53,686 nt of DNA from Candidatus Zixiibacteriota bacterium (GCA_043819555.1 JBDREQ010000010.1:1-53686), one strand, 5' to 3'; shown: positions 1-14,592, counted from the first letter of the stretch. Made by a program: numbers and translations. Notes: generated by a model from the sequence alone, not told the origin.

Positions 1-162
1 CTCACGACAGATCGCATTCAGAGAGGAGAACCTCACACCTTTCAGTTTCCCTGTTTTAAACAGTGAAAGGGCTGTGAGTGAAATACAAATGCGGGTCGAG
101 AGTTCGGTCAAGGACATCTTTCTGCGAGCCAACATCACATCCAGGTTTACTTGTATAGCCAT
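1..162 (-). CDS. Xre/Cro-C1 HTH regulator, YozG-like (partial, runs off the left edge)
   Basis: Manual translation MAIQVNLDVMLARRKMSLTELSTRICISLTALSLFKTGKLKGVRFSSLNAICRE matches the YozG/HTH_26 pattern. Not in the ORF track. Confidence 0.85.
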   Translation of the reverse strand, partial: MAIQVNLDVMLARRKMSLTELSTRICISLTALSLFKTGKLKGVRFSSLNAICRE

Positions 163-296
163 GATTCCAAGATACACAATGTTTTTAATTAGTCAAGTGA
201 AAATTATAAGCTATAATTAAAATATTTTAATTTTACATTAAAATTGTCGAAATGGAAGGACCGGCCTGGCGCGGAATAAGAACGTTGGATTCGAGC

Positions 297-517
297 AAAA
301 AAACAATCACAATTTGGGCACAATAGGGCGTAAGTCCTTGTGCCACAACGCAAGTATGGGGTTCGATTCCCCCACCTCCACCAATATAACTCATTACAAT
401 TCAATAGATTACAGGCCGGACGGGAGTATAATACCCCCCACCCTTGTCTATGTAAGCCTATATCCCCCAATAACACTGAATAAGGTGACACCATTTTGGT
501 CATGATTTGGTCACAAT
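297..517 (+). repeat. attP-like junction repeat, copy 1, with tmRNA/tRNA-Ala 3'-end core
   Basis: Degenerate GGTCACA-x2 arms at both ends; core GGGGTTCGATTCCCCCACCTCCACCA at 358-383; aligns end to end with 5489-5709 and 7556-7772. Confidence 0.9.
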
Positions 518-640
518 GAATTGGAGTGCCTTCACGAAATTCTGACTCCCGTCAAGAAGGTGCGATTTATCGATAATCATTGACGGATTGGCCCCTATCG
601 GCTATATTTATAGCCGTACGATTAGATTTGGAATGAGTGT

Positions 641-820
641 ATGCCAGAACGCCCCAAAGAACCTCCACGTGGACCGATGATTCATATCCGACTTGATGAG
701 ACAACCCACCGCAAGCTCAAGATCCGCATGGCTCACGAAGGCACCACTATTCAACACCTGGTCGCTGACCTGATTTGCCGAGAAGTTGGTGAAGCGGACA
801 GAACGAGCAAAAAAACATAG
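641..820 (+). CDS. Small ribbon-helix-helix (ParG/CopG-like) DNA-binding protein, 59 aa
   Basis: Manual translation MPERPKEPPRGPMIHIRLDETTHRKLKIRMAHEGTTIQHLVADLICREV...; beta-strand IHIRL followed by two helices. Below the ORF-track cutoff. Confidence 0.7.
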   Translation: MPERPKEPPRGPMIHIRLDETTHRKLKIRMAHEGTTIQHLVADLICREVGEADRTSKKT

Positions 821-858
821 TCTGACATCTTGCGCTGCAAAACACCTTAACCGCCATA

Positions 859-3800
859 GTGAGGAGTTGTCTGATGCATCTCTCATTGCGAATCTTGTTT
901 TCAAGTGCCACGATACTTTTTTCTGTAATCGTCACGCTATGCCCTACTGTCACTCAAGCGGAAGTCTACGTCAACATGCTCTGGGATGAGCACACACAAA
1001 GCTACAGGGTGTCATCACTTGGCGGGGAAGGGAGTATCACGTTTGATCGTGACTATCAAAACTCCTACGGTGAGGAAAGAGACTTGGATCCGGGGCCACC
1101 GTTCATCGTTCAGTCAAGTATCCGGTTCGTGGGTGCCGTGTCTTTCGAATCGGGCGGTTTCGACCCGCTGAATCCTTTTGTGGTGCTGGTTCAGATAGGC
1201 GAAGGACACGACGGTCTGATCAGCGGCGGTGCCGGTGTCAATTTTGTTGGCACTTCGTTGGATCCGATTAGGGTTGAGGGTAACTACAAGATTCGATCCG
1301 GGATCGACTACCGATACCATAGTTTTCGATGGACCAATACCGAGTTCCGCTGTACTCACAGTGACATCACCGGGAACAGCACTCCATTTGCAGTAACCGG
1401 GGGATCGGCGCTGATTGAAGATTGCTACTTTCCCGACTATCCCCAGCCGTTCAACCAGCTGATTAGCCTGCTTGATTACGGTGCTGAAAATAGTTGTATC
1501 GTGACCATACGCAACTGTCGGTTTGAGCGCTGTGATTTTCCCAACCAGACCTACCCGATTATCGTGCGCGACGCCGCCGAATTTACGCTTGAGGACTGTC
1601 ATTTCGAAGATGTCAACTTCTGGGAGGACGATCTCAGCGCCTTGATGGACATCCGCGGATGCGGGATCAAGTCGATCAAAGGCAACACGGGTCACAATAA
1701 CAATCAAAACAAATTCCGCCTAGTCGGAGCTCGAGTGAAGGATTCGGCCTTCATCCGTTGCACCGAGAGCCTGCCGATTGTCTCAAGTACGATTACGGTC
1801 GATCCGGGGGCGGCGCTAGCGATCGGCCGAGGCTCGCTGATCAAGTTCCTGATCACCGGTGGGCTGGATGTCGGAGGGCAGCTGTATGTCGACAGTTCGA
1901 TCTTCACTTCAAATGAAGACGACGAGTATGGCGGAGACACCGATCATAAACCCCAACCGGATCCGTTTGTGGGGAACTGGTCGATCAACGGCGTTTGCGG
2001 TATCCTGGTTGACTCGACTGGCTCGGCCAACATTAGGCGGACGCTGATTCGCTACCCGCGAGCAGGCATATACGCCTTCAACCAGGTTACTCTGGACTCC
2101 TGTCAGTTCGTGGATGGCTGGTACTCTGGATTGGTGCTGCGCGGGGCGTACGAAGCGGATTTCAATATCACCAACACCACCATTAGAAATTACACGCGTC
2201 TGGACCCCTATACCGCCGCCATCTTCTATGAGAACCGCACTTTTCACCGCCAATCCCTGACCCTGGACAACGTGAGCCTCCTGTCCAACGCAATGGATGG
2301 CATAGATTTCTTCTACATGAGCGGCGGTCCCACCCGGGTCAAGTTGAACAATTGCCGCATCGCAGACAATACCGGGCGCGGGATAGTGTTCCCCATCAAC
2401 AATGCTCTGGAGAGCATCGATATCACCAACTCCGTCTTCGTCGGCAACGCCTACACGGCGATCGATGGGCTCGACAACTACGGTAGTGGTATCCCGATCA
2501 ACATCGAAAACAACGTGGTGGTCGGCAACGGGCATTACCAGAACGCCACTCGGCCGGACGGGATACACTTAGCCGGGGGTACCTGCCGTATAGTCGGCAA
2601 CACGGTTCTTCAGAACCACCGGGCTGGCATTCTGATCGAGGGCCTGGACAACATCGAGCAGTGTGTCGTGGCTAACAATCTGCTAGTAGGCAACGGCGAA
2701 TGGGGCTTGTACAAATCTGACTACGAAGCGCCGATAGTGGTTGGCAACAGCCACTGGGATAACGCCGATGAAACCCAGGAACTGCGCTACCGAGGGCCGG
2801 ACGGCTGGATTCACACGGTCGAAGAGTTGCAAGCGCTGGGCGGCGATTTCGTCACCAACATCCATGTTGCACCGGGGTTGTTGCCGGAGATTTCCGGTCA
2901 GATCGATACCGTGATTTATGACAGCCCCAGCGGGCTGTCGAAGCTTGTCGATGCCTCGGGGAGCTTCCCGTCGGCTGCGACACTGGCTGGCCGTTTCGTC
3001 TGTCCCGACACGTCCAATGTCAGCTGGAACTATCTCTGGAACGTATCCGGCGACACTCTGATGTTTCTGGGCGATATCAGAGAACATGCCGGCACCGGCA
3101 GCTTTTATCGAATGATTGATTTTCACCTGTCCGAGACTTCGCAGTTGATCGACGCCGGGTTCACGACCCAGACACAGGAGATGTTTGACATCGACGGCCA
3201 GGCGCGGATACTCGATGGTGATGAAAACGGCAGCATGCTGGTCGATGTTGGTGCTGATGAATTCGGCGGGGAAGACGCCGCGTCGTCGATTAGAGTCCTC
3301 CAGCCTTCGAGTGAGAAGCTGCTGGTGGCTTATGGGACCTTCAACATCGAATGGCAGGCGCCGGATAGTGTTGTCTCGGTCAATATTGCCTACAACAGCT
3401 CATACGACCCGGCTTACCCTGATGCCGGTTGGGAGACGATTGCTTCGGGCACCGATGCTAGTTCGGGGTATTACTCGTGGAGCATACCCGATAACGCCAC
3501 CACTATGACCTGCTATGTCCGGGTCGTGTCATCGGCTCATCCCGACATGATCGGGATGAGTGCGCCGTTCAAGATCAAGCACACCGGCCTGACTCGGATT
3601 CGAAACGATTCACTAATTACCTATTCCCATCCTGAGAATAGCTGGCAATTCTCGAACGATTCGGCCAATATGTGGCCGGTGGAAGCCTGGCCGTCGTACA
3701 TTCTAGACAACGACACTATAACCGGCTTCCCGTATCCACTCGAGTTTGCCGATATTAGAGCCAATTCCTCCGATTTTCCGAGTTGGCCGACTTTTGTCGA

Positions 3801-5484
3801 GGCGTTCGGTTTCGACGCCTGTTACTTCGATTACTGGCTGGGACCCCAGTACCGGCCATCGGCAGTCCTGCGCTGGGGGGCGATCAAGCGCAACTGGAAC
3901 GGTTCTTGTCTGGGGCTGGCCGTCACTAACCTGATGGCGTTCGTTGATTCGGCCGCCTTCGCCGATCGACCCGAAATCGGACCCTTCACTAATCTCAACA
4001 GCCTGGGTATGACTGACCAGCGCCGAAGGATGATCAGCCGGTACTTTACTTATCAATTCGGAAAGGCTAATCGCGACCACACCCGGACCGCACGCATCAA
4101 GACACCATCGGAAACCCTGGCCGAGCTGAGAAGCATGTTCAGCAGTATGGTGGCTTCGACAGCAGACCGCGTTATCACGATCTGCGACACCAGTTCGGTC
4201 AACAGCCGGGGGTGTCACACCGTTACACCTTATCTTCTCGAACGAGTCAACCAACAGGACAATACCTGGTCATTGCTGGTCTACGACAACAATGTACCGA
4301 ATGACTTCCCGACGATCGATTTCAACGCCAACACCAACAGTTGGACTTATGCCCAACTGGGCTTGTCGGGGGACAGACTGTTCTTCCTCGAGGATCCTTT
4401 GTCCAACTATGCCGATCCGGCAATAATGACTGCGGCGCCGAGAGAGCTGCCTCCCGTGGCCACCACCACCAGTGACTATTTTGAGATCTATCTGACGAAT
4501 GCTGATTCAGTCCGGCTCGAACTGGGTACGGGCGCAATCGGTCGATACCACGACTCGCTCTTCAACACCGTTCCAGGAGCAATGCCGATAATTCCTCGCG
4601 CCGACGGTCCGGGCGATCCGATCGGTTACCTGGTTCCCGAGGGGAATTGGTCCTGCCGCCTAGCAGGTGTGACGCGGGACCAGGCCCACGTCAGTGTGTT
4701 TTCCGACAGTGTGATCATGTCATATCGCCGCAACGGTGTAGTATCCACCGAGGCCGACCGCGTTGATATCAGAAGTGGTGCGGCCATGCATCTGATCAAT
4801 CCGGACGCTGCGGGCAGAGACTGTGATATCGACTTCGTATTGATCGCTCCCGACCGCGAACGAGTGCTGGCTCTCGACAATCTGCGCCTGGCCGCGTCCG
4901 ATTCCGGGACGGTTGAAGTCACTCAAGCCACCGGCTTACGGGTGACGAATTATGGGCCTGAGTCTGCCTACGACATCGTGCTGCGGGGTGTCGGCAATAG
5001 CGGGCTGCGGGAGTTCACTCACGAGAACGTTACTCTGGAGGCCAACTCAGTTCATCAGTTAGAGCCGGACTGGGTCGACTTAGGCCGCGAAGACCTGATG
5101 ATTGTCATCGATCTGGGGATCAATGGTGTTTTCGAAGATACTATCTTCATAGCGAACAGCTCACCCACTGACGTGGATGACGATGAGTCAGGGACGATTC
5201 TGCCGTACCGGTTTGACTTATCGCAGAACTATCCGAATCCATTCAACCCGGTGACGACGATTGAGTACAGTCTTCCTGAGCGCAGTCATGTTACCATCGA
5301 AGTGTACAATGTCCTTGGCCAGAAAGTGCGATCACTAGTTGATCGCGAAGAGTCCGCTGGGTCTTACACCACAACATGGGATGGTAAGTCTGAAAGAGGG
5401 CAGTCGGTTTCAACGGGCGTTTATCTCTATCGCTTTCAGGCCGGGGATCACGTCGAAACAAAGAAGATGTTGCTGCTGAAATAG
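859..5484 (+). CDS. Large secreted protein: beta-helix repeats, choice-of-anchor-Q-like motif, Ig-like domain, papain-like domain, FlgD-Ig/T9SS-type C-terminal domain
   Basis: Signal peptide; N/G-rich parallel beta-helix repeats; DFHL..S..IDAG..DIDG..R..VDVGADE; C-terminal LSQNYPNPFNP..TKKMLLLK. Confidence 0.85.
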   Translation: MRSCLMHLSLRILFSSATILFSVIVTLCPTVTQAEVYVNMLWDEHTQSYRVSSLGGEGSITFDRDYQNSYGEERDLDPGPPFIVQSSIRFVGAVSFESGGFDPLNPFVVLVQIGEGHDGLISGGAGVNFVGTSLDPIRVEGNYKIRSGIDYRYHSFRWTNTEFRCTHSDITGNSTPFAVTGGSALIEDCYFPDYPQPFNQLISLLDYGAENSCIVTIRNCRFERCDFPNQTYPIIVRDAAEFTLEDCHFEDVNFWEDDLSALMDIRGCGIKSIKGNTGHNNNQNKFRLVGARVKDSAFIRCTESLPIVSSTITVDPGAALAIGRGSLIKFLITGGLDVGGQLYVDSSIFTSNEDDEYGGDTDHKPQPDPFVGNWSINGVCGILVDSTGSANIRRTLIRYPRAGIYAFNQVTLDSCQFVDGWYSGLVLRGAYEADFNITNTTIRNYTRLDPYTAAIFYENRTFHRQSLTLDNVSLLSNAMDGIDFFYMSGGPTRVKLNNCRIADNTGRGIVFPINNALESIDITNSVFVGNAYTAIDGLDNYGSGIPINIENNVVVGNGHYQNATRPDGIHLAGGTCRIVGNTVLQNHRAGILIEGLDNIEQCVVANNLLVGNGEWGLYKSDYEAPIVVGNSHWDNADETQELRYRGPDGWIHTVEELQALGGDFVTNIHVAPGLLPEISGQIDTVIYDSPSGLSKLVDASGSFPSAATLAGRFVCPDTSNVSWNYLWNVSGDTLMFLGDIREHAGTGSFYRMIDFHLSETSQLIDAGFTTQTQEMFDIDGQARILDGDENGSMLVDVGADEFGGEDAASSIRVLQPSSEKLLVAYGTFNIEWQAPDSVVSVNIAYNSSYDPAYPDAGWETIASGTDASSGYYSWSIPDNATTMTCYVRVVSSAHPDMIGMSAPFKIKHTGLTRIRNDSLITYSHPENSWQFSNDSANMWPVEAWPSYILDNDTITGFPYPLEFADIRANSSDFPSWPTFVEAFGFDACYFDYWLGPQYRPSAVLRWGAIKRNWNGSCLGLAVTNLMAFVDSAAFADRPEIGPFTNLNSLGMTDQRRRMISRYFTYQFGKANRDHTRTARIKTPSETLAELRSMFSSMVASTADRVITICDTSSVNSRGCHTVTPYLLERVNQQDNTWSLLVYDNNVPNDFPTIDFNANTNSWTYAQLGLSGDRLFFLEDPLSNYADPAIMTAAPRELPPVATTTSDYFEIYLTNADSVRLELGTGAIGRYHDSLFNTVPGAMPIIPRADGPGDPIGYLVPEGNWSCRLAGVTRDQAHVSVFSDSVIMSYRRNGVVSTEADRVDIRSGAAMHLINPDAAGRDCDIDFVLIAPDRERVLALDNLRLAASDSGTVEVTQATGLRVTNYGPESAYDIVLRGVGNSGLREFTHENVTLEANSVHQLEPDWVDLGREDLMIVIDLGINGVFEDTIFIANSSPTDVDDDESGTILPYRFDLSQNYPNPFNPVTTIEYSLPERSHVTIEVYNVLGQKVRSLVDREESAGSYTTTWDGKSERGQSVSTGVYLYRFQAGDHVETKKMLLLK

Positions 5485-5488
5485 GCAT

Positions 5489-5709
5489 AAAAAACGGTCA
5501 CAATTTGGTCACAGTGCCACGTAAGTCATTGTGCCGCAACGCGAGTATGGGATTCGATTCCCCACACCTACAATAGTATAAACTATTACAATAAAACAGT
5601 TTACCGGTCGGACGGGGGTAGCATACCCCCCACCGTCACGTTTGTAAGCCTATATCCCCCAATAACCCCGAATAACGTGAAACCATTCTGGTCACGATTT
5701 GGTCACAAT
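5489..5709 (+). repeat. attP-like junction repeat, copy 2
   Basis: AAAAACGGTCACAATTTGGTCACA...GATTCGATTCCCCACACC...GGTCACGATTTGGTCACAAT; homologous to copy 1. Confidence 0.9.
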
Positions 5710-5736
5710 AACAGGCGCAACTACTCAGTATAGAAT

Positions 5737-6090
5737 TTATCGATCTGACCAGACCGCCAACTCATTTCCGGCCGGATCGGTGAAGTGAAAGCGTCTTCCT
5801 CCCGGAAACTCGAATATCTCCCGGACAATCTGCCCGCCGTTCAAAATAACTTGGGCTTTAACATCGGCCAAATCCGTAGAATAGAGCACGACTAAGGGAC
5901 CACCTGATGACACTTCCAACGCTACACTAAAACCTCCGGCTAATCGACCATCATTGAAGCTCGTGTAATCAGGGCCATAGTCTGTGAACTTCCAACCGAA
6001 GACCTTTGAGTAAAACCTCTTAGTCTCCTCAATGTCTGTGGCAAGAAACTCTATATAGTCCACACGGCAATCTTGCTCTACCTGGCTCAT
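5737..6090 (-). CDS. VOC/glyoxalase family protein
   Basis: VDYIEF..KRFYSKVFGW..EFPGGRRFHFTDPAGNELAVW. Confidence 0.92.
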   Translation of the reverse strand: MSQVEQDCRVDYIEFLATDIEETKRFYSKVFGWKFTDYGPDYTSFNDGRLAGGFSVALEVSSGGPLVVLYSTDLADVKAQVILNGGQIVREIFEFPGGRRFHFTDPAGNELAVWSDR

Positions 6091-6402
6091 CGCATCATCT
6101 CCTTTTCTTATCTACGTTCAAAGATATTCAAGCGATCATCACAATTATCCGCCTAAAATAGATTGCGAAACGATATTAAAGTTTTGTTAATACTCAAATT
6201 AAGAAGAAGAACGAAAACTGGCAATCACTTTCATGAGATCATAGCTCCAAACAACACCACTAAAAGCCGGCCGCTCCCCGGTAACAGTATTGTCTTTTTA
6301 TTGAATGCATAGTATATTTGTTAAATGAGAATAAATAGATCCACACCTGTTTACAGTTATAGCAGACTAAGAAGTTCATGTGCCCAAGAGTCATTCAGGA
6401 TA

Positions 6403-7527
6403 GTGCGTGCCATTTTGATCTTCTCCATTGCTCTTACATCATTTCCCGCCAGATTACTCGGTCAGGACTCACTACATACAGCCAATACTCCCAAGTTCGA
6501 GCTGCTATGGTCATTCGATACCGGTGGCTGAGTATTTGTTTCGCCCACGGTCGTGGGAGATGTTTTGTACATTGGTTCATGCGCTGGCACCTGCTATGCG
6601 CTTGATAGGCGATCCGGCCAGGTCCAATGGACATACGATATAGGCGAAGTGTCATTTCATGGTGAGCCCATTATATCAGACTCACTCTTGATCATTCCTA
6701 CAGATGGAAGATCTGGGGCAATCTATGCCCTGACTCTTAAAAAAGGACTTCTAATCTGGCAGTACGAAGCTGCTGATCGACCCGAGAGAATAGACGGATT
6801 TACCACCGATCTAGTGCTGGCTGGATCGGGAGTGCTCGGTGTGACAACGAGTGATGATGTTGTCTGTATGGACGCTGAAGATGGAAATGTAATATGGGAT
6901 TTTCCAGCGCTTGTGGTTCCCGATGGAAGGTATTGGAACGTAGGACCTGCAATTCGTGACACTTCGGTATTCTTCATCAGGTATGACGGCTGGCTACATT
7001 GCCTAGATTCGAAAAACGGAAGTGAGGTGTGGAGATCAGATCTTGCCATGAAACCTACGACAAACATGGTGCTTGATGATGATTGCATTTACGTCGGGGC
7101 AAATGATAGCACGATCTACAGAATTGCTCTAACTGATGGAAAAGTAATAAACAGTAAAAAACTCAAGGGACGACCGGGCTTGCAATTGGAGATTGTGGAC
7201 TCTTTGCTTTATGTCTTTACTCAGGAAGATCCTGACTTCACCGGCATGCTGAACCTTTCGGCTCTGAACAAAGATCTCTCACGTGTTGCATGGAAATCTC
7301 CCGCCTCGTATGACACACCTTGGACCATAAAAAAGGTATATGAATACAAAGATTGGATTATCACCGGCAAAGCAAATGGAGAGGTTTTATTTCTTGATCC
7401 ACTAACCGGTCATCAACATGGATCGATCAAAGTAAACGGAGAATTGAGAAGCATAGGTTTCAGTGGCACTGTCCTATATGTAGGCACTATGAATGGGATG
7501 GTCCATGCAATTAGGATGGATGACTGA
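6403..7527 (+). CDS. Secreted PQQ-like (BamB-type) beta-propeller protein with in-frame TGA at 6529-6531 (candidate selenocysteine; otherwise a pseudogene)
   Basis: ORFs 6325..6531 and 6553..7527 share a frame. GTG 6403 follows AGGA and gives a signal peptide. WSFDTGG*VFVSPTVVGDVLYIGSCAGTCYALD is one continuous PQQ repeat. Confidence 0.8.
6541..6560 (+). promoter_or_regulatory. SECIS-like hairpin
   Basis: TCGCCCAC-GGTC-GTGGGAGA; the GGUC apical loop begins 17 nt after the in-frame UGA. Confidence 0.6.
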
Positions 7528-7555
7528 TCTTCAGTTGCCGGTAAACTCCTATCTC

Positions 7556-7772
7556 AAAAACGGTCACAATCTGGTCACAATACGGTGTAAGTCCTTGTCC
7601 CACAATGCGAGTATGGGGTTGGATCCTCCCACCTCCAATAAGATAACTCATTACAATACAATAGATTACCGGCCGGCTGGGTGTATTATACCTCCCACCC
7701 TTGCGTTTGTAAGCCTATATCCCCCAATAACACCGAATAATGTGCAACCATTTTAGTCACATTTTGGTCGCA
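7556..7772 (+). repeat. attP-like junction repeat, copy 3 (core degenerate)
   Basis: AAAAACGGTCACAATCTGGTCACAA...GGGGTTGGATCCTCCCACCTCCA...AGTCACATTTTGGTCGCA. Confidence 0.9.
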
Positions 7773-7812
7773 GTTCTTCCCCTGGTCTGCTTTTCGTCTA
7801 ACACTCAGATAA

Positions 7813-7872
7813 TGTAAGTATTTATTGTCAAGATGTAAATAATACTTGACATGTTGTCGATAATTGTTTACA
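7813..7872. promoter_or_regulatory. Three 18-bp imperfect palindromic operators (TGTMAA-N6-TTKACA-like), 21-bp period
   Basis: Boxes at 7813, 7834 and 7855; the middle box contains TTGACA; the arrangement is conserved upstream of the paralog at 19904-19963. Confidence 0.7.
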
Positions 7873-7921
7873 ATTAGGGCAAGATGATAATGAACGACGT
7901 GGAGGAACTGAAACAAGTCAG

Positions 7922-8131
7922 ATGAAAACGACCCTTCGCAGATTCAGGTTTGAGCGAGGCGAACTCAGCCAACAGCAACTTGCCAATATGGTCTCGGTGT
8001 CACGCCAGACCATAGTCTCAATTGAGAAAGGTGACTACGCCCCATCAGTGAAGCTGGCTTTGCTTCTGGCGGAGACACTCGAAACTACCGTCGGAGAACT
8101 CTTTGTACTGGAGGAGAAAGACCATGTTTAA
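7922..8131 (+). CDS. Xre-family HTH transcriptional regulator
   Basis: LSQQQLANMVSVSRQTIVSIEKGDYAPSVKLA is the HTH_3 signature. Confidence 0.95.
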   Translation: MKTTLRRFRFERGELSQQQLANMVSVSRQTIVSIEKGDYAPSVKLALLLAETLETTVGELFVLEEKDHV

Positions 8132-8813
8132 GAGAGATCCTATTTTCTGGTGGGCGAGCGGCATCTTCGTTGCGGCGCTGGGGCTATTCGCGGCGTCACA
8201 GGACCAGTCCTGGCTGACACTCATGATAGCTTCCTATCTCCTGCGTCCAACTCTGGCATCACTCGGAGTCGGTCGGAAGAGAATCGATGAGCGTCAAATG
8301 ACGATTCATTACCGTTCGGGCAATATTGCGTTCGCCGTTATGATGATTGCATGCGTCATTGCGGCCATCACACTTGCAGCTGAAGACAACCATGCGTATA
8401 AACTCTTCGCTATGGTCATTGTCATTGGGCTTGCTGCCAAAGCACTATTCAATGTGATCCTGGCAAAGGACTTCCAAAAGGCACCAACTCTGATAATAAC
8501 CTCTGTCGGTCTCCTGATAGCGCTATTTGGATTTTTGGAAGGGAGTCCACCATTTCAGGATAAGCTGATGGATGCACTTCCCGGAAGTGCAATTGCTGTC
8601 GTCGGCCTGCTGTCTGGGAAATACCCAAGATCGATTGGCATAGTGATCTTTGCCATAACGGCATTTCTCCTCACGATGATTTTTGTCAGAGGCCTTAACT
8701 GGACATCGATTGTAACAGCGCTTGTTGTCGGTGTGCCACTGACACTTGCCGGCATATATCTCTTCAGGCGGGACAAAATCGACAGCGATTCAGAACCGCA
8801 AGGCACGACGTGA
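8124..8813 (+). CDS. Integral membrane protein with DER motif (DUF2178-like partner of Xre HTH)
   Basis: Multiple TM segments; IDERQMTI motif; ATG 8124 overlaps the HTH stop and follows GGAG. Confidence 0.75.
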   Translation: MFKRDPIFWWASGIFVAALGLFAASQDQSWLTLMIASYLLRPTLASLGVGRKRIDERQMTIHYRSGNIAFAVMMIACVIAAITLAAEDNHAYKLFAMVIVIGLAAKALFNVILAKDFQKAPTLIITSVGLLIALFGFLEGSPPFQDKLMDALPGSAIAVVGLLSGKYPRSIGIVIFAITAFLLTMIFVRGLNWTSIVTALVVGVPLTLAGIYLFRRDKIDSDSEPQGTT

Positions 8814-8841
8814 CAAATTAACTGAATCAGCCAAAGAACAG

Positions 8842-8989
8842 ATGAAACCGCTCGCAATAGGAAGTGAAACCGGCGCTTCTTCGGGAGGAGAAGCTCAATG
8901 CTGCCGTTGAAGAACTGTTTTTGCTGGGGGATAAGCTCAAAGCTGCAGTAGAAGAACTGTTTTTGCTGGAGGATAAGGACTGTGTTTAA
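8842..8989 (+). pseudogene. Degenerate copy of the Xre HTH gene containing a 42-bp tandem duplication
   Basis: Reads EVKPALLREEKLNAAVEELFLLGDKLKAAVEELFLLEDKDCV*, compared with the HTH C-terminus SVKLALLLAETLETTVGELFVLEEKDHV*; same overlap with the next gene; repeat units start at 8891 and 8933. Confidence 0.75.
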
Positions 8990-10316
8990 ACGAGACAAAA
9001 TTTTCTATTTCGCCTGTGGGCTTTGCTGTATCGGCGTGGCACTGGCGGTTATGGACTACGAATTTGCATTGCTATTATTCGTCGTCGCCTATTTGCTCCG
9101 TCCTGCACTTCATGAGTTTGGGATTGCCAGGCAGTACGCCGACGAACGTCAACTTACGATTCACTCCCGTTCAGGCAATATCGGGTTTGTTGTTGTGATG
9201 CTGGCGGCAGTGGGTTTTGCTCTTTGGCGAATCTCTCGAGGACAATACCCGGAAGAACTATACGAATTGATCTTCCTCGGCCTCGCGGCCAAGGCAATTA
9301 CGGGGCTAATAATGGTTGGCGAGTATCGGAAAGCCGGCGTTGTGATAATAAGTGCCGTAGGCGTATTCCTGTCATTGTTCATAATCGCTGAAGGTGGGTT
9401 CTCTGTCGCTTCGATCGTCGGACTTGTTGTTGGGGGAGTGATTGTGGGATTTGGCCAGTTGGCACGTAGATTCCCAAAGGCAATAGCTTTCTTTCTTGCC
9501 GCAGTCGCAATTTTGGCGATTCTCCTATTCGATCTTTACGATTTTCGGACCGTAGGTACGGGCCTGTGGTTGTTCTTCATAGCGCCAGTAATAACCGCAT
9601 CAACCTGCTTATTTCTCGGAAGAGGGGATCAGGAGGAGGAAGTGTCTCCCCGACTCAGAGCATCTGTCTTTGGAACTCTGGGAGCAGGCGCGGCAGTGGT
9701 CTTTATATTGCTCATGATTTTTGGTGGTCGGAATGAACCAGTTACGAGTCGGGTCGTAGCTGCACCGGAAGGAGAAGTAGTAGAAATTCAGGGCATTTCC
9801 TGCGTGGGCTCGGTCGAGTACTACCAGGACGGGAAATTGACATCATGCACGTTAGGACTCGAAGACACACTGTCCGGGCAGCCGCTTCCGGCCGGAACTG
9901 TCATTCATTTAACCCCTGAAGGTTACTTCGACTGGTGCTTTCTCCAGCAGAATACGGAAATCCAGGGGCATCTTTGCAGAGGGGAAAGTCATGGATTCAT
10001 GACTGGTTTTCATCCGAATGGACAACTCAAGACTGCCTGGCTGGCACAAGATGAAGTTATACAGGGGATTCCTTGCGCCAAATTCAAGTTTCTATCTGCT
10101 GTGATGGGATGGATAGAAGGCAGTGGCAAAGATGGCAGCACTAGATTTCATGAAAACGGACTACTTAGATACTGCGCACTTTCGGAAAATTTCACTATTG
10201 AAGAGCAGAGATTCAGAAGAGGGGATGTGGTAAGATTTGATCGTGATGGAAAGTTAGTCGGAGACAAGAAGAAGGCGACAATTTCGAGTCGCCGTGTACC
10301 GACGGATTATCGTTAA
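8982..10316 (+). CDS. Membrane protein (paralog of 8124..8813 N-terminus) with C-terminal MORN/YwqK-like repeats
   Basis: MFKRD..AYLLRP..DERQLTIHSRSGNI shared with the upstream gene; repeated F/Y-H-x-NG-x-L units. Confidence 0.75.
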   Translation: MFKRDKIFYFACGLCCIGVALAVMDYEFALLLFVVAYLLRPALHEFGIARQYADERQLTIHSRSGNIGFVVVMLAAVGFALWRISRGQYPEELYELIFLGLAAKAITGLIMVGEYRKAGVVIISAVGVFLSLFIIAEGGFSVASIVGLVVGGVIVGFGQLARRFPKAIAFFLAAVAILAILLFDLYDFRTVGTGLWLFFIAPVITASTCLFLGRGDQEEEVSPRLRASVFGTLGAGAAVVFILLMIFGGRNEPVTSRVVAAPEGEVVEIQGISCVGSVEYYQDGKLTSCTLGLEDTLSGQPLPAGTVIHLTPEGYFDWCFLQQNTEIQGHLCRGESHGFMTGFHPNGQLKTAWLAQDEVIQGIPCAKFKFLSAVMGWIEGSGKDGSTRFHENGLLRYCALSENFTIEEQRFRRGDVVRFDRDGKLVGDKKKATISSRRVPTDYR

Positions 10317-10387
10317 CGACTGACTGAAACGCCCGCATGTGAGGTGATCCGGCGGCGGCCATTCTGAAAACATGAGAGGAGTTCTTT

Positions 10388-11515
10388 ATGAAACGTATCA
10401 CTCAATTTCTGGTGGATGATCTGCTGCAAAGCCTGGTTGCCCGGCTCTTTGGGGCTGTAGCAATCATCATCGTATGCAGTGGTGTTGCTTTAAGCGGCGA
10501 TATCCAATCGGGCGCCGCAGTTGCTAAGGCGTACCAACTGCGGCTGGACGGCAAGGTGGACGAGGCAAAAACTATGCTTAATGATCACATCACCGCAAAC
10601 CCCGCAGATGCCGCCGGGTACTATGAACTTGCCAGAGTGTATTACTATATGGGTCCCGGAGATATTAAGAATATCCAAAGCACTATCGAAAGTGGTGAGA
10701 AATCAATTCAGAAAGCCGTAGAGCTTGATCCCGGCAATCCTGTCTATCAGTACTTTGCCGCCCGAGTGGCATTCTTCAAGGCATACATGGCTATGCAAAG
10801 CGATGAAGAACACGCCAAGGAACATGTGGCGGCAATCTGTCTCGCTTATGAGGCAGTCCTCGAATCGAAACCTGATTACGGTGAACCAATTCTGAATCTC
10901 ATTGAGCTATATGGTGGTTTGCCGGAGGAATTGGGCCGGGATACGGCTAAGGCAGCTCAATTCGAAGCGAGACTACAGGTCATTGACCCTGTTCTTGCGG
11001 GCAAAGGACATTGCATAATGATGCCCGATGACTTTGATCGGATTGCTTACTGGAAGGATATGGCAAAGCAGCACCCGGGAAATATGCAGGTACTTGAAGA
11101 ATTGGGGAAAACATGTCTCAGGGAAGGCAAAACCGATCAGGGCGTGGACTATCTCAAGAACGTCATGGACGCTGAGCCTTCCAATTCAGTTCTCTATCTG
11201 GTCATTGCTAATCATCACATCATGAACGTCTGGCAAGACGAGCAAGCCAAGGGGAAATCGATTCCGTTGGCGATACAAGCCGTCAATGGCTTCCTGGCTA
11301 CCAAGCCAATCGCGCCATTGAAGGCCTACGCCCTCGGCATATTGGCAAAACTCAATTACGCTCAGGAGAAGAAAGCTGAAGGTGACAAATGCTTTGAGGA
11401 AGCCAAAGCGACCGATGCTTATTTCTCAAAGGCATCCGGCATCCCGTTGGCTGATCTGTTCGTTCCACCGGGAGAGATATCACACAATCACAGGTTTCTA
11501 TTTCAGCCATTCTAG
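10388..11515 (+). CDS. Secreted/membrane-anchored TPR-repeat protein
   Basis: N-terminal hydrophobic segment; helical repeats such as YYELARVYY and KAVELDPGN. Confidence 0.75.
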   Translation: MKRITQFLVDDLLQSLVARLFGAVAIIIVCSGVALSGDIQSGAAVAKAYQLRLDGKVDEAKTMLNDHITANPADAAGYYELARVYYYMGPGDIKNIQSTIESGEKSIQKAVELDPGNPVYQYFAARVAFFKAYMAMQSDEEHAKEHVAAICLAYEAVLESKPDYGEPILNLIELYGGLPEELGRDTAKAAQFEARLQVIDPVLAGKGHCIMMPDDFDRIAYWKDMAKQHPGNMQVLEELGKTCLREGKTDQGVDYLKNVMDAEPSNSVLYLVIANHHIMNVWQDEQAKGKSIPLAIQAVNGFLATKPIAPLKAYALGILAKLNYAQEKKAEGDKCFEEAKATDAYFSKASGIPLADLFVPPGEISHNHRFLFQPF

Positions 11516-11583
11516 TTCCAGACATTTTGTCACTGATGCTTTTGGAGGCGATAATAGACTTTTTGACTCGAAAATAAGCTTAG

Positions 11584-11665
11584 AAAAACGGTCACAATTT
11601 GGTCACAACAGAGTGTAAGTTCTTGTGCCACAACGCGAGTATGGGGTTCGATTCCCCCTACCTCT
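11584..11665 (+). repeat. attR-like half site (left arm plus core only), copy 4, ending the array
   Basis: AAAAACGGTCACAATTTGGTCACAA..GTAAGTTCTTGTGCCACAACGCGAGTATGGGGTTCGATTCCCCCTACCTC; homology to copies 1-3 stops right after the core. Confidence 0.85.
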
Positions 11666-11729
11666 ATTTTATCGTGCCGTGTAGATTTATATAGATTAAT
11701 AAAATAATTATTCAAACAGAAGAGAGTAA

Positions 11730-12365
11730 TTATTTATTTGATAATAAAGCGGCAATGACAGTGTGCGTTCCGAATTTGCCGGGAATTTCAACTGTGTTCA
11801 TCTCAATAATATTGAAAAAAGGCTTATACAATTCTCTCAATTCCAGCTCAGAAGAAAAATACAGGGTCGTTCCCAGGGGAGTCTCTCGATATTTTTCCGA
11901 AGTACCGAATGATTTATCTTCTTCACTGAAACAGACACTGAAATATTGGCCGTTTGCTTTCAATAATTTAAAGACATTTTCGATATATTTCGGCCTGTCC
12001 TTGGGGAAGATATGATGCAATACCTCCCAATCCATAGCCAAATCAAAGCCATTATGAAATTCCTTCAAATCACCCAGAAGATTGCGGGCGAAAAATTGGC
12101 ATTTTGTACCGGATTTTTCGGCCTGCTTTTTCGCATACAATATTGCCTCAGAGCTGATATCTATTCCGGTGACATCGAATCTATTCTGAGCAAGCCAGAT
12201 CGAATAATTGCCAGCTCCGCATCCCAAATCAACAATTTTGCCGGGTTTGATTTTTTCGGAATCAATAAGATTAATCAACAACTTGGGCGGGCTGGAAATG
12301 TTCCATGGAATTTTCTCAAGCGGAATATCCCGATAAATTTTATCCATCTGGTCACGAATATTCAA
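11730..12365 (-). CDS. Class I SAM-dependent methyltransferase (TPMT/TehB-like)
   Basis: VDLGCGAG motif [10 protein letters not shown]-terminal IPW motif. Confidence 0.9.
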
Positions 12366-12525
12366 ACTGCTTTATCGCCTTTCACTTCCATTTATAACGC
12401 CTAATTTGTTAATAATCAAGACCAATAAACGCGCCCAAAAATAAATTTTGGAAGTTTACTCATGCCCGCTTATATTGCGCTCCAAATTAATTCCTTACGC
12501 TTATCAGGATTATGAGGTGGTATAT

Positions 12526-13743
12526 ATGAGCGAGGCGATTGCAAATAATCTTCCCCTAAAGGGATACCGAATTCTCGATCTGTCCCGCATCCTGGCAGGG
12601 CCATATTGCACAATGATATTGGGCGACCAGGGAGCAGAAGTAATCAAAGTGGAACGCCCCGGTTCGGGAGATGATACCCGCACCTGGGGACCTCCCTTCA
12701 GCGGCGGTGAAAGCGCTTACTATCTTTGTTGTAATCGAAATAAAAAATCAATCGTGATTGATTTGAAAACCGAAGCCGGTTTGGAGATAATCCGCGAGAT
12801 GGCAACCCAATCTGATGTATTTGTTGAGAATTTCACTCCCGGACTATCAAAGAAATTCGGGCTCGATTATGAGACACTGCACAAATTAAACCCGCGTTTG
12901 GTCTATGTCTCTATTTCGGCATACGGTCAGGACGGTCCTTATCGAGACCGGCCGGGATATGACATGGTTTTGTCGGCAGTCGGCGGTTTGATGTTTATAA
13001 CCGGTGAGCGCGACGGCAATCCCTGCAAAGTCGGCGTTGCCATTACCGATGTTTTAACGGGAGTTTATGCGTCGGGCGCGATAACCTCGGCCTTATTATG
13101 GAGGGAGCGATCGGGTAAGGGGCAGCATCTCGATATCAGTCTTCTCGATGTACAAGTCTCTGGATTGGCTAACATCGCCAGCAATTATCTTGTATCCGGC
13201 AAAGAGGCGACGCGCTGGGGAACAGCTCATGAATCAATAATTCCTTATCAGGTTTTTTCTGCCAAGGATCGTCCAATCGCGATCGCGGTAGCCAATCAAA
13301 AGCTGTGGGTTAATTTTTGCAAAGCGGTCGGAAAAAAAGAATGGCTCGATGACCAACGGTTTGAATCGAACCCGAAACGCGTTGAAAACCGCGAAATACT
13401 TCTTCCTCTCGTTCATGAATTATTCTCGACAAAAACGTGTGATGAATGGATGGAAATACTGGTAGGAGCGGCCATACCCTGCGGCCCGGTCAATGATATG
13501 GAGCATTTATTTGCCGATCCCCAGGTTAAGCATCGAGGCATGATAGCCGAGCTGCCGCATCCGACTATAGGTAATTTGAAATTGACGGGAATACCGATTA
13601 AGTACAGTGAAACGCCGGGTCAGATTAGAATGCACCCGCCTCTTCTGGGCGAGCATACCGACGAAGTTTTGAGAGATGTTCTTGGTTATTCATCTGAGAA
13701 AATTGAGGAATTGAGAAAGAAAGGCGCGATTGTTCAGAAATAA
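12526..13743 (+). CDS. CoA-transferase family III (CaiB/BaiF)
   Basis: PLKGYRILDLSRILAGPYCTMILGDQGAEVIKVE; RNKKS; PGYD; PPLLGEHT. ATG 12526 follows GAGGTGG. Confidence 0.95.
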   Translation: MSEAIANNLPLKGYRILDLSRILAGPYCTMILGDQGAEVIKVERPGSGDDTRTWGPPFSGGESAYYLCCNRNKKSIVIDLKTEAGLEIIREMATQSDVFVENFTPGLSKKFGLDYETLHKLNPRLVYVSISAYGQDGPYRDRPGYDMVLSAVGGLMFITGERDGNPCKVGVAITDVLTGVYASGAITSALLWRERSGKGQHLDISLLDVQVSGLANIASNYLVSGKEATRWGTAHESIIPYQVFSAKDRPIAIAVANQKLWVNFCKAVGKKEWLDDQRFESNPKRVENREILLPLVHELFSTKTCDEWMEILVGAAIPCGPVNDMEHLFADPQVKHRGMIAELPHPTIGNLKLTGIPIKYSETPGQIRMHPPLLGEHTDEVLRDVLGYSSEKIEELRKKGAIVQK

Positions 13744-13749
13744 ATATTT

Positions 13750-14592
13750 CTAAGTAATGATCCGATGCGGATGGGTAAATATTGTTGCCCGTGTTTCCCG
13801 CACGAAGGCGCACAGGGTAATATTGCATTTTTGAGCCACTTCAATCGCCATAGATGTCGGCGCTGATACAGCCGCAATGATTTCAATCCCCGGCCGGGCA
13901 CAGCGGCTGACCATCTCGAGGCTAAGACGGCTGGTCAGGGCAATTCCCATTCCGGAAGTATCCCACCCGCTTAACAGGCATTTGCCAATGGCCTTGTCCA
14001 ATGCGTTATGACGGCCAGTATCCTCGGCAAAAGTAATAATTTCCCCCTGGCCATTAAACAATGCCGCCCCATGCGTTCCCCCGCTGGCATTGAATAATTC
14101 CTGTCTTTCACGAATTTTTTTGTATACGGAAGGCATGATATCCGCTTTTATTTTCAATTTATTACCAACTTCAGGCAAAGATTCAATTCGCTTTTTAAGA
14201 TTTTCACTTCCGCATGCCCCGCATGAAGAGACAATCATCAGGTTGCGCCCTTCGTCCCCGATATGGGGAACATCACCGGCCAGCCGGATACGAATCGTAT
14301 TGGGATCATCTTCACATTCTTTTATAATCGTGATCTCTTTGATGCTATCAATGATACCTTCAGTAAAGAGAAAACCGACGGCCAGAGCGTGGCTATCGGT
14401 CGGGGTGCAAAGAATAGTATAATCTTCGATGCCCTCGACATCAATTGTCATGGGGGATTCTTTGACAACACAGACATCTTCCGTATTGACCGGAACATCC
14501 TTATCGGCCGTCGATATACGGCTGGCTTGAACATATTTCAGCGTGTCAGGTTTTTTATCTGATTTATCCATGGCAGGGTTTCCTGATTCCAT
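13750..14592 (-). CDS. fdhD: Formate dehydrogenase accessory sulfurtransferase FdhD
   Basis: SSCGACG; GGTHGAA; EDTGRHNALDKAIG; VSAPTSMA. Confidence 0.93.
   Translation of the reverse strand: MESGNPAMDKSDKKPDTLKYVQASRISTADKDVPVNTEDVCVVKESPMTIDVEGIEDYTILCTPTDSHALAVGFLFTEGIIDSIKEITIIKECEDDPNTIRIRLAGDVPHIGDEGRNLMIVSSCGACGSENLKKRIESLPEVGNKLKIKADIMPSVYKKIRERQELFNASGGTHGAALFNGQGEIITFAEDTGRHNALDKAIGKCLLSGWDTSGMGIALTSRLSLEMVSRCARPGIEIIAAVSAPTSMAIEVAQKCNITLCAFVRETRATIFTHPHRIIT

Follow-up and report, generated by a model that had tools for sequence, protein, structure and literature searches.

Recombinase-less gene cassettes between attachment-like sites matching the tmRNA 3′ end in a Candidatus Zixiibacteriota genome

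We analyzed a stretch of 53,686 nucleotides from a Candidatus Zixiibacteriota bacterium (GCA_043819555.1, JBDREQ010000010.1:1-53686), referred to here as the window, which is the entire contig C10 of a metagenome-assembled genome (G000; 79 contigs, 3.35 Mb, 97% complete). Positions 1-11665 of the window are probably the distal half of an array of small, non-autonomous cassettes resembling cis-mobilizable elements (CIMEs), seated at the 3′ end of ssrA, the gene for transfer-messenger RNA (tmRNA), and moved by a tmRNA-specific integrase that a helper element encodes. We favor this reading because of the anatomy of the sites, the matched arms of the cassettes, the variability of the array, the horizontal spread of a cassette, and the arms held in common with an integrase-bearing island.

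The attachment (att) units were located by repeat search and blastn, and the count of the arm motif was compared with that in shuffled sequence. Both searches returned the three units of ~220 bp and the fourth one ending at the core that a preliminary description, made from the window alone, had reported (Table 1). The three full units were 81-85% identical in pairs over 214-222 nt, the fourth was 85-89% identical to their first 75-82 nt and stopped at the core, and all four were on the plus strand. The arm motif GGTCACAATTTGGTCACA, with up to three mismatches allowed, occurred seven times in the 53.7-kb window, each time on the plus strand and within a unit, compared with 0.05 copies expected from the shuffles. 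The paired GGTCACA repeats that had been assigned to both ends of every full unit were generally present, but the left pair of unit 1 (AATCACAATTTGGGCACA) and the right pair of unit 3 had three mismatches each. Similarly, the core had been described as a T-arm plus an acceptor strand with CCA in each full unit; it was intact (...ACCTCCACCA) in unit 1, but the cores of units 2-4 had point changes in the T-loop or the acceptor part. An alignment showed that the P arm is conserved across units of Zixibacteria and Ignavibacteria. The analysis supports that the units are real recombination sites, namely P-core-P′ junctions of a tmRNA-directed site-specific recombination system. We also observed a second, degenerate copy of the tmRNA T-arm (CGGACGGGAGTATAATACCCCCCACC) in the P′ arm, at window 417-442 and at the equivalent places in units 2 and 3. 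The G5-loop-C5 hairpin of the P′ arm was kept in units of Zixibacteria and Ignavibacteria with a variable loop sequence, and a tmRNA-like segment was joined directly to this hairpin in G010 (C65). This T-arm copy could be left over from an earlier displaced tmRNA end or could be a second site of the core type.

The unit core is the 3′ end of the genome's own tmRNA gene, and the four co-oriented copies in the window match it. ARAGORN analysis of the whole genome gave a single tmRNA gene (C71:31395-31752) with the 3′ end GGGGGTTCGATTCCCCCCACCTCCA and the 5′ end GGGGGTG, just as had been predicted from the core. Within the window, ARAGORN found no tRNA or tmRNA gene, and Rfam over positions 1-14000 gave just weak tmRNA 3′-end matches below threshold (13.3 bits versus a gathering score of 47), while an Rfam match to a long non-coding RNA in the same range was put down to chance. 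The core of unit 1 contains CCA; the tmRNA gene of G000 ends without an encoded CCA (...CCTCCAATTT), and the tmRNA genes adjoining the integrase described below do encode it. From the sequence, this CCA hints that the junction may have originated in another lineage. Other tmRNA sequences were also observed. The start of C41 (105-138) held the 3′ end of a different tmRNA (acceptor ...GCCTCCACCA), and two contigs of another Zixibacteria genome (G015; C9 and C3, loci L092 and L173) had two complete tmRNA genes that differed in their tags, with a separate cassette array behind each of them. These extra sequences in G000 and G015 reflect either a second ssrA copy or mixed strains in the assemblies.

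A cassette was defined as the core-to-core segment, with a P′ arm at its left and a P arm at its right, and recombinases were sought by a Pfam scan of open reading frames (ORFs) and a six-frame PF00589 search of all G000 contigs. The cargo had been described as free of recombinases, and this agrees with our results: no recombinase family was found in the 13 window proteins scanned, nor in the 24 ORFs scanned out of 39 from C60, C46, C42, the C71 end, C23, and C55. The six-frame search gave five matches, none of which was on C10, C60, C71, C46, or C42. By Pfam, the five complete cassettes with both arms had no relaxase, coupling protein, or recombinase. Remnants of integration or transfer genes were likewise not found in the scanned cassettes, which neither proves nor excludes an origin by decay. 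The survey of recombinases covered a total of ~25 cassettes in eight genomes of Zixibacteria and Ignavibacteria besides G000, and none of these cassettes encoded one. Hence the conclusion is supported that any movement of the cassettes requires an integrase from outside them. Candidates for a cognate integrase in G000 were rejected: two genes on C7 were labelled Xer-like from size and score, that on C18 is an unrelated recombinase of the IS91-associated type located away from the array, that on C6 belongs to a tRNA-Met island with an excisionase-like gene upstream, and that on C53 is truncated at the contig end. As for the cargo itself, the window cassettes have two to four genes each, with their own regulators and genes on both strands. 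The gaps from the end of the last cargo ORF to the next unit were 4, 28, and 68 bp, in line with the 4-70 bp given previously. The beta-helix gene of cassette 1 had a GC content of 54-57%, compared with 43-50% in the flank.

The preliminary description expected further junctions and an integrase to the left of the window. Contig C60 (7.4 kb) is the left neighbor of the window, because its last 141 nt are identical to window 1-141 and an HTH_26 gene reads through the join with overlapping translations. C60 indeed held further junctions (Table 1), but there was no integrase upstream in G000. We named the att families by their arms, A having GGTCACA and B having TGTCACG heptamers. Directly 3′ of the tmRNA gene on C71, there was a family-B P′-like arm with TGTCACG heptamers and an AATAAC..GAATAAC box in common with family A; C71 ended 1430 bp later, inside an AbiEi/AbiEii pair. 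The P′ and P arms were of one family in all five cassettes with both ends known (B-B once, A-A four times), which fits the serial integration of circles that each brought their own attP. The two cassettes nearest the tmRNA gene (C71:32.0-33.2 kb and C60:1-6185; loci L194 and L191) were paralogous, with ~79% nucleotide identity where alignable, and both contained AbiEi/AbiEii and an AEP-TOTE primase-helicase. Therefore, the head of the array consists of conflict-system cargo.

The right flank was compared with that of a genome of the same genus (G013). Its tmRNA gene plus the upstream region was 87% identical to C71, and its C42 was syntenic and 83-84% identical at the nucleotide level to the region from window ~11738 onward. 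The distance from the tmRNA gene to the flanking methyltransferase was 4.1 kb in G013, enclosing other genes, and at least 20 kb in G000. Both flanks are thus conserved in G013 and yet separated by only 4.1 kb there, so the array appears to be an insert of variable content that stands between ssrA and the chromosome. Since the conserved chromosomal flank starts just past unit 4, this unit is the terminal P-core-B′ site, which supports the previously proposed pattern of P-core-P′ junctions followed by one such site. When the units were compared by blastn with all 79 contigs, matches were solely on C10, C60, C46, C71, and C23, with short cores on C41, C42, and C55. On C46 (1885-1960), a family-A P arm and core were followed by unrelated sequence, an ECF sigma factor, and an MMPL transporter. 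The junction on C42 (224-385) consisted of arms of a third family (TTGTGCC twice) and a partial core. On C55 (33351-33368, minus strand), a lone P-arm-like sequence, AAAAACATGGTCACAATTTGGTCACAAT, stood immediately before a SnoaL-like gene, ~130 nt from the end of an rve-type insertion sequence transposase at the contig end.

Table 1. Attachment units, cassette cargo, and flanking features in G000, and the arrays behind the tmRNA gene in three relatives. Positions without a contig name refer to the window.
Feature	Position	Strand	Remarks
C60, first: 3′ part of AEP-TOTE/helicase gene			
C60, second: P_B-core-P′_B junction	C60:1862-2085		
C60, third: AbiEi, AbiEii, AEP-TOTE-helicase			
C60, fourth: hybrid P_B-core-P′_A junction	C60:6387-6559		
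C60, fifth and sixth: 194-aa ORF, then 3′ part of HTH_26 gene			
Cassette 0 cargo: 5′ part of Cro/C1-type helix-turn-helix (HTH) gene	1-177	-	Pfam HTH_26, E 2.7e-11; gene runs on into C60
Unit 1 P arm	297-357	+	unit 1 spans 297-517; part of cassette 0; arm repeats 305-322 degenerate
Unit 1 core GGGGTTCGATTCCCCCACCTCCACCA	358-383	+	copy of tmRNA T-arm and 3′ acceptor strand, with CCA
Unit 1 P′ arm of cassette 1	384-517	+	T-arm-like hairpin 417-442; box AATAACACTGAATAA 469-483; arm repeats GGTCATGATTTGGTCACA 498-515
Cassette 1 cargo: ribbon-helix-helix protein, 59 aa	641-820	+	Pfam RHH_10, E 0.0015, under the curated cut-off
Cassette 1 cargo: 1541-aa beta-helix protein with type IX secretion C-terminal sorting domain	859-5484	+	Pfam Beta_helix, Por_Secre_tail, FlgD_ig
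Unit 2	5489-5709	+	P arm of cassette 1 (arms 5496-5513); mutated core 5549-5572; P′ arm of cassette 2 (arms 5690-5707)
Cassette 2 cargo: glyoxalase/bleomycin-resistance-fold protein, 117 aa	5737-6090	-	PF00903, E 5.8e-10
Cassette 2 cargo: PQQ/BamB-like beta-propeller protein, 324 aa	6553-7527	+	Pfam PQQ_2, E 1.3e-31
Unit 3	7556-7772	+	P arm of cassette 2 (arms 7562-7579); mutated core 7615-7637; P′ arm of cassette 3 (arms 7755-7772, degenerate)
Cassette 3 cargo	7922-11515	+	HTH_3 regulator 7922-8131; DUF6442-like membrane protein 8103-8813; 444-aa protein 8982-10316; TPR protein 10388-11515 (Pfam)
Unit 4, terminal attR-type site	11584-11665	+	P arm of cassette 3 (arms 11590-11607); core 11643-11665; no P′ arm
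Start of conserved chromosomal flank	11730-13743		methyltransferase 11730-12365 (-); family III CoA-transferase 12448-13743 (+); Pfam
G005:C93, behind tmRNA gene			three cassettes (RES-domain protein; D-serine dehydratase-like protein and RidA; two beta-lactamase-fold proteins), then a P-core site
G006:C62, behind tmRNA gene			1.2-kb cassette
G002:C15, behind tmRNA gene			homologue of cassette 3

Unit 1 had matches in 10 of the 13 other genomes of the window's family (14 genomes including G000), with the core only in G001. Comparison of the unit with relatives, which had been suggested previously, showed the same att family with differing cargo and order (Table 1). An arm-motif scan of a collection of species-representative genomes matched at least 120 stretches, and 79 loci were examined. 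Further tmRNA arrays among the matches listed were those of Zixibacteria (L062, L063, L070, L092) and Ignavibacteria/Ignavibacteriales (L049, L071/L093, L095), and also L043 and L057. Many of the matches listed were integrase-type arms ~60 nt past tRNA genes in many phyla; therefore, the arm motif alone is not specific to the tmRNA cassette system. No recombinase family, PF00589 included, was found in the 57 ORFs scanned (of 88 called) in or beside arrays at nine collection loci, nor in another set of 15 scanned ORFs. A six-frame search of the whole genomes G014-G017 detected no integrase within the unit-bounded parts of the arrays, and integrases were found only in the tmRNA-proximal island of G014 and G017.

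Cassette 3 was then compared, from core to core (window 7615-11659), with its homologues in other genomes. Nucleotide identity to C15 of G002 was 92.1% and 89.6% over 1325 and 2570 nt, and that to C9 of G015 was 90.1% and 88.6% over 1236 and 1354 nt, with the 444-aa gene absent in G015. The homology ended within the cores in both genomes. Identity of the tmRNA genes to that of G000 was 74% for G002 and 67-70% for G015. The cassette is first behind the tmRNA gene in G002, first and followed by a serine-dehydratase cassette in G015, and last in the array of G000. The 6 kb upstream of the tmRNA gene showed no similarity among the three genomes, and the CoA-transferase of the flank was absent from G002 and 34-43% identical in G015. 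Because cassette 3 is 88-92% identical, the tmRNA genes are 67-74% identical, and the neighbors differ in all three genomes, these results indicate that an integrase-less cassette moved horizontally. The comparison is direct evidence that cassette 3 crossed genus boundaries without an integrase of its own.

A matching integrase is encoded in other genomes. Behind the tmRNA 3′ end of G014, a complete Zixibacteria chromosome, there is a P′ arm that contains AATAACACCGAATAAC and GGTCACAATTTGGTCACAAT; ~50 nt past this arm is the gene for a tyrosine integrase of 336 aa, which has the same orientation (PF00589, 111 bits). In the 44 kb that follow, there are genes for two Replic_Relax proteins, a TrwB-like coupling protein, a Phage_rep_O-like protein, and an HTH regulator, together with helicase/methylase defence genes; this set, as predicted from sequence, corresponds to an integrative mobilizable element. 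At its far end, the island has a family-A P arm, 94% identical to positions 11-72 of unit 1, and half a core. Past the island, there are three integrase-less segments bounded by family-A units, up to a P-core site 100 kb from the tmRNA gene. Similarly, Ignavibacteria G017 has a 54%-identical integrase in the first island behind its tmRNA gene, followed by five integrase-less cassettes. Eight metagenome contigs encode integrases 81-99% identical to that of G014; a GGTCACA pair lies 40-50 nt before the ATG in seven of these loci, and the tmRNA 3′ end is ~175 nt upstream in six and 1.2 kb upstream in one more. A helper phage with a contiguous family-A attP was also considered and rejected: 18 IMG/VR loci matched the arm motif and none had the unit. 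Among viral contigs, the closest relative of the G014 integrase was just 29% identical.

A separate and broader integrase clade, located next to tRNA-Ser, Leu, and Met genes and provided with pairs of TGTG(A)CC heptamers, was observed in the window's family and many phyla. Its attL layout (G000 C65:13787-14297; L021, L024, L029, L030, L032, and others) consists of the tRNA 3′ end, a TTGACA-type promoter, two TGTG(A)CC heptamers 4 nt apart, and the integrase ATG. The heptamer arm sites between the promoter and the int ATG could be positioned for autoregulation of int. The end of C65 in G000 encodes the N-terminus of such an integrase beside tRNA-Leu, with arm repeats (GGTCACAATGTGGTCACA) that are near-identical to those of the array but in opposite orientation. 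This integrase was rejected as the trans-acting enzyme of the array; its relatives are found next to tRNA-Ser, Met, and Leu, and its identity to the tmRNA-linked clade is only ~30-35%.

We propose the following mechanism for the array. An excised cassette circle would hold one complete P-core-P′ attP, and a tyrosine integrase of the lambda/P4 type would integrate, excise, and carry cassettes between cells. The N-terminal arm-binding domain of the integrase would recognise the paired GGTCACA heptamers, and the crossover would fall in the core sequence GGGGTTCGATTCCCCCCACCTCCA. The integrase would be supplied by a helper island that is larger than the cassettes, shares their att arms, and belongs to the integrative-mobilizable type; this helper would act in trans or co-excise with adjacent cassettes by accretion and cis-mobilisation. 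If the helper later left alone, orphan cassettes would remain; the simplest explanation of orphan arrays may be that helpers deliver or mobilize cassettes and depart afterwards. We infer that an integrase of the G014 type would bind these arms and recombine these sites, and the route of transfer and the present mobility of the G000 cassettes are presumptive in the same way.

Several observations weigh against this mechanism. No integrase of the G014 type was found in the 14 genomes of the window's family (best 33%). The best match in G000 was 32% identical over residues 99-334. Of the earlier proposal of an integrase acting in trans, the lack of a cassette recombinase and the need for an outside enzyme stand, but no resident integrase was found in G000. 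The enzyme was also absent from G015 and G016 (at most 36%), both of which have large contigs. The P′ arm of the integrase-bearing islands has only the AATAAC...GAATAAC box and the paired heptamers in common with the P′ arm of the cassettes. Mutations affect the cores of units 2-4 and some arm repeats, for example GGGGTTGGATCCTCCC in unit 3, so that some of the sites may be dead. The G000 cassettes may also be immobile for want of a helper. No excision or circle junction was seen in the sole public run with the region (X1, 5% of sampled words), which gave 11 short, low-depth contigs without joints on window 1-12500 and is therefore uninformative about excision. The link from C71 to C60 is presumed from gene content, namely the AbiE/TOTE cargo and the family-B arms, with no sequence overlap, and the junctions on C46 and C42 are off the C71-C60-C10 chain and may be strain variants of the array.

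The lack of a cognate integrase in G000 and its family could also mean that the cassettes are decayed, once-autonomous integrase islands, that their sites are no longer used, and that the array, though variable, has become a fixed part of the chromosome. The mutated cores of units 2-4 and the degenerate arms of units 1 and 3 fit this explanation, and decay to CIMEs is the standard model in the account cited (PMC5704250). However, no integrase match or fragment was found in any of the ~25 cassettes, many of which are only 1.2-5 kb; cassette 3 spread between genera without an integrase while retaining both arms; and the sequence of the P arm is conserved over two phyla despite diverging tmRNA genes. 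We therefore regard a fossil origin as unlikely, while it deserves more weight than the resident integron-like platform and the dispersed repeat considered below. Conversely, rather than being decay products, the cassettes may be minimal mobile units of a class of their own (attP plus cargo, 1-9 kb), singly excised, exchanged, and re-integrated at ssrA by a dedicated tmRNA-specific clade of tyrosine integrases on visiting helper islands. We put this forward tentatively, as a possibility somewhat better placed than decay and well short of the non-autonomous, helper-moved array proposed above. If true, the class would be a double-stranded, lambda-att counterpart of integron cassettes, common to Zixibacteria and Ignavibacteria.

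The preliminary description considered the array to work like an integron, and in the strict form of that idea a resident chromosomal integrase beside ssrA would capture single cassettes, and a common promoter would express the array. The layout of the array fits, and the integrase stands directly behind the tmRNA gene at the array head in G014 and in six of the eight metagenome loci. Nevertheless, that integrase is inside a 44-kb, att-flanked, mobilizable island and not in the chromosome proper, and its patchy presence, with most array-bearing genomes lacking it, argues against a resident platform. The cassettes, moreover, have their own regulators and genes on both strands, and there are no attC-like sites. 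We consider such a platform quite improbable, and the integron-like working claimed earlier was not borne out: neither intI, attI, Pc, nor attC was found, and the cassettes have two to four genes. Even less probable, in our judgment, is that the units are a dispersed non-coding repeat, either of the type of miniature inverted-repeat transposable elements (MITEs) or a tmRNA-derived regulatory or terminator module, spread by duplication or homologous recombination. The conserved G5-loop-C5 hairpin of the P′ arm and the intergenic position of the units would suit such a repeat. In contrast, the copies are co-oriented and restricted to the contigs that form the ssrA array, each unit combines two cassette-specific arms with a tmRNA core between them (one unit being an A/B hybrid), and the same arms flank the integrase-bearing island of G014. 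Scattering like a MITE, which the preliminary description named as a contrary outcome, was likewise not seen, as the copies are limited to a few contigs and all those in the window are on the plus strand.

Arrays of related kinds have been described, with the ssrA islands of Dehalococcoides and the CIMEs of streptococci as the closest precedents, and the comparisons here concern the parts of those accounts that are cited. In Dehalococcoides, tandem islands downstream of ssrA have direct repeats of the ssrA 3′ end as their boundaries, and their content is strain-specific, and 15 islands without an integration module were proposed to be cis-mobilizable elements (McMurdie et al. 2011, PMC3146451). 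The present array is similar in its tandem segments behind ssrA, ssrA 3′-end repeats, and variable content. It differs from the Dehalococcoides islands as described there, which have the serine recombinase DsiB and simple 20-bp repeats, in its association with a tyrosine integrase and ~220-bp lambda-type sites with heptamer-pair arms, and every assembled cassette in G000 is integrase-less and smaller (1.2-5 kb). CIMEs of the ICESt1 family are flanked by attL and attR, have no integration or transfer genes, stand in tandem with a helper of the same att sites, and are moved by the integrase of the helper (PMC5704250). The cassettes are likewise att-flanked and without integration or transfer genes, and an integrase-bearing island in G014 terminates in the same P arm. 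However, CIMEs are presented in that account as decay products, usually one beside an integrative conjugative element, whereas we observed long arrays in two phyla with no decay remnants and mostly no resident helper. The H47 island of E. coli lacks a recombinase and yet excises and integrates with host-supplied functions, termed a 'parasitic strategy' (PMC3191183); it is also a small island between long imperfect direct repeats. In the cited account, it is a single 13-kb island outside an ssrA array with mobility observed by experiment, whereas the cassettes are known from sequence alone. Tycheposons of Prochlorococcus are tyrosine-recombinase elements that target tRNA and tmRNA genes; their repeated integration at one site leaves cargo and partial copies of the tRNA in variable islands (bioRxiv 10.1101/2020.12.28.424599). 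As described there, they carry their own integrase, and their integrase-less units are degenerate remnants rather than a conserved att-bounded class.

Compared with integrons, the array is similar in that recombinase-less cassettes stand at one chromosomal site, each in principle a circle with a single recombination site. The sites here are double-stranded, lambda-type att sites with direct heptamer pairs instead of attC hairpins, there is no intI, attI, or Pc, and the cassettes are multi-gene, self-regulated, and coded on both strands. The array thus resembles an integron in layout only. Compared with tyrosine-integrase islands at tRNA and tmRNA genes (Islander-type), displaced copies of the target 3′ end are present here, but an own integrase for each island is not. 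Because integrase-less, att-flanked, tandem ssrA islands are already described in the parts of the two papers cited (PMC3146451, PMC5704250), the novelty is limited. In full-text literature searches, no account was found of cassette arrays with lambda-type P-core-P′ sites at the ssrA gene of Zixibacteria or Ignavibacteria.

The array illustrates how uncultured bacteria of the Fibrobacteres-Chlorobi-Bacteroidetes (FCB) group, namely Zixibacteria and Ignavibacteria, assemble and exchange accessory genes, with cargo that ranges over secreted adhesin-like proteins, toxin-antitoxin genes, TOTE/AbiE defence, metal and arsenic transporters, and hydrolases. The concept of CIMEs and ssrA islands is extended to arrays that consist almost wholly of non-autonomous units, with comparative evidence for genus crossing. 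The pair of a ~220-bp P-core-P′ site and a 336-aa integrase is defined and testable, and it could become a genetic tool for lineages that have none. Under the proposed mechanism, the vehicles of genes in these bacteria would be minimal att-bounded cassettes at a single safe site, and not full islands.

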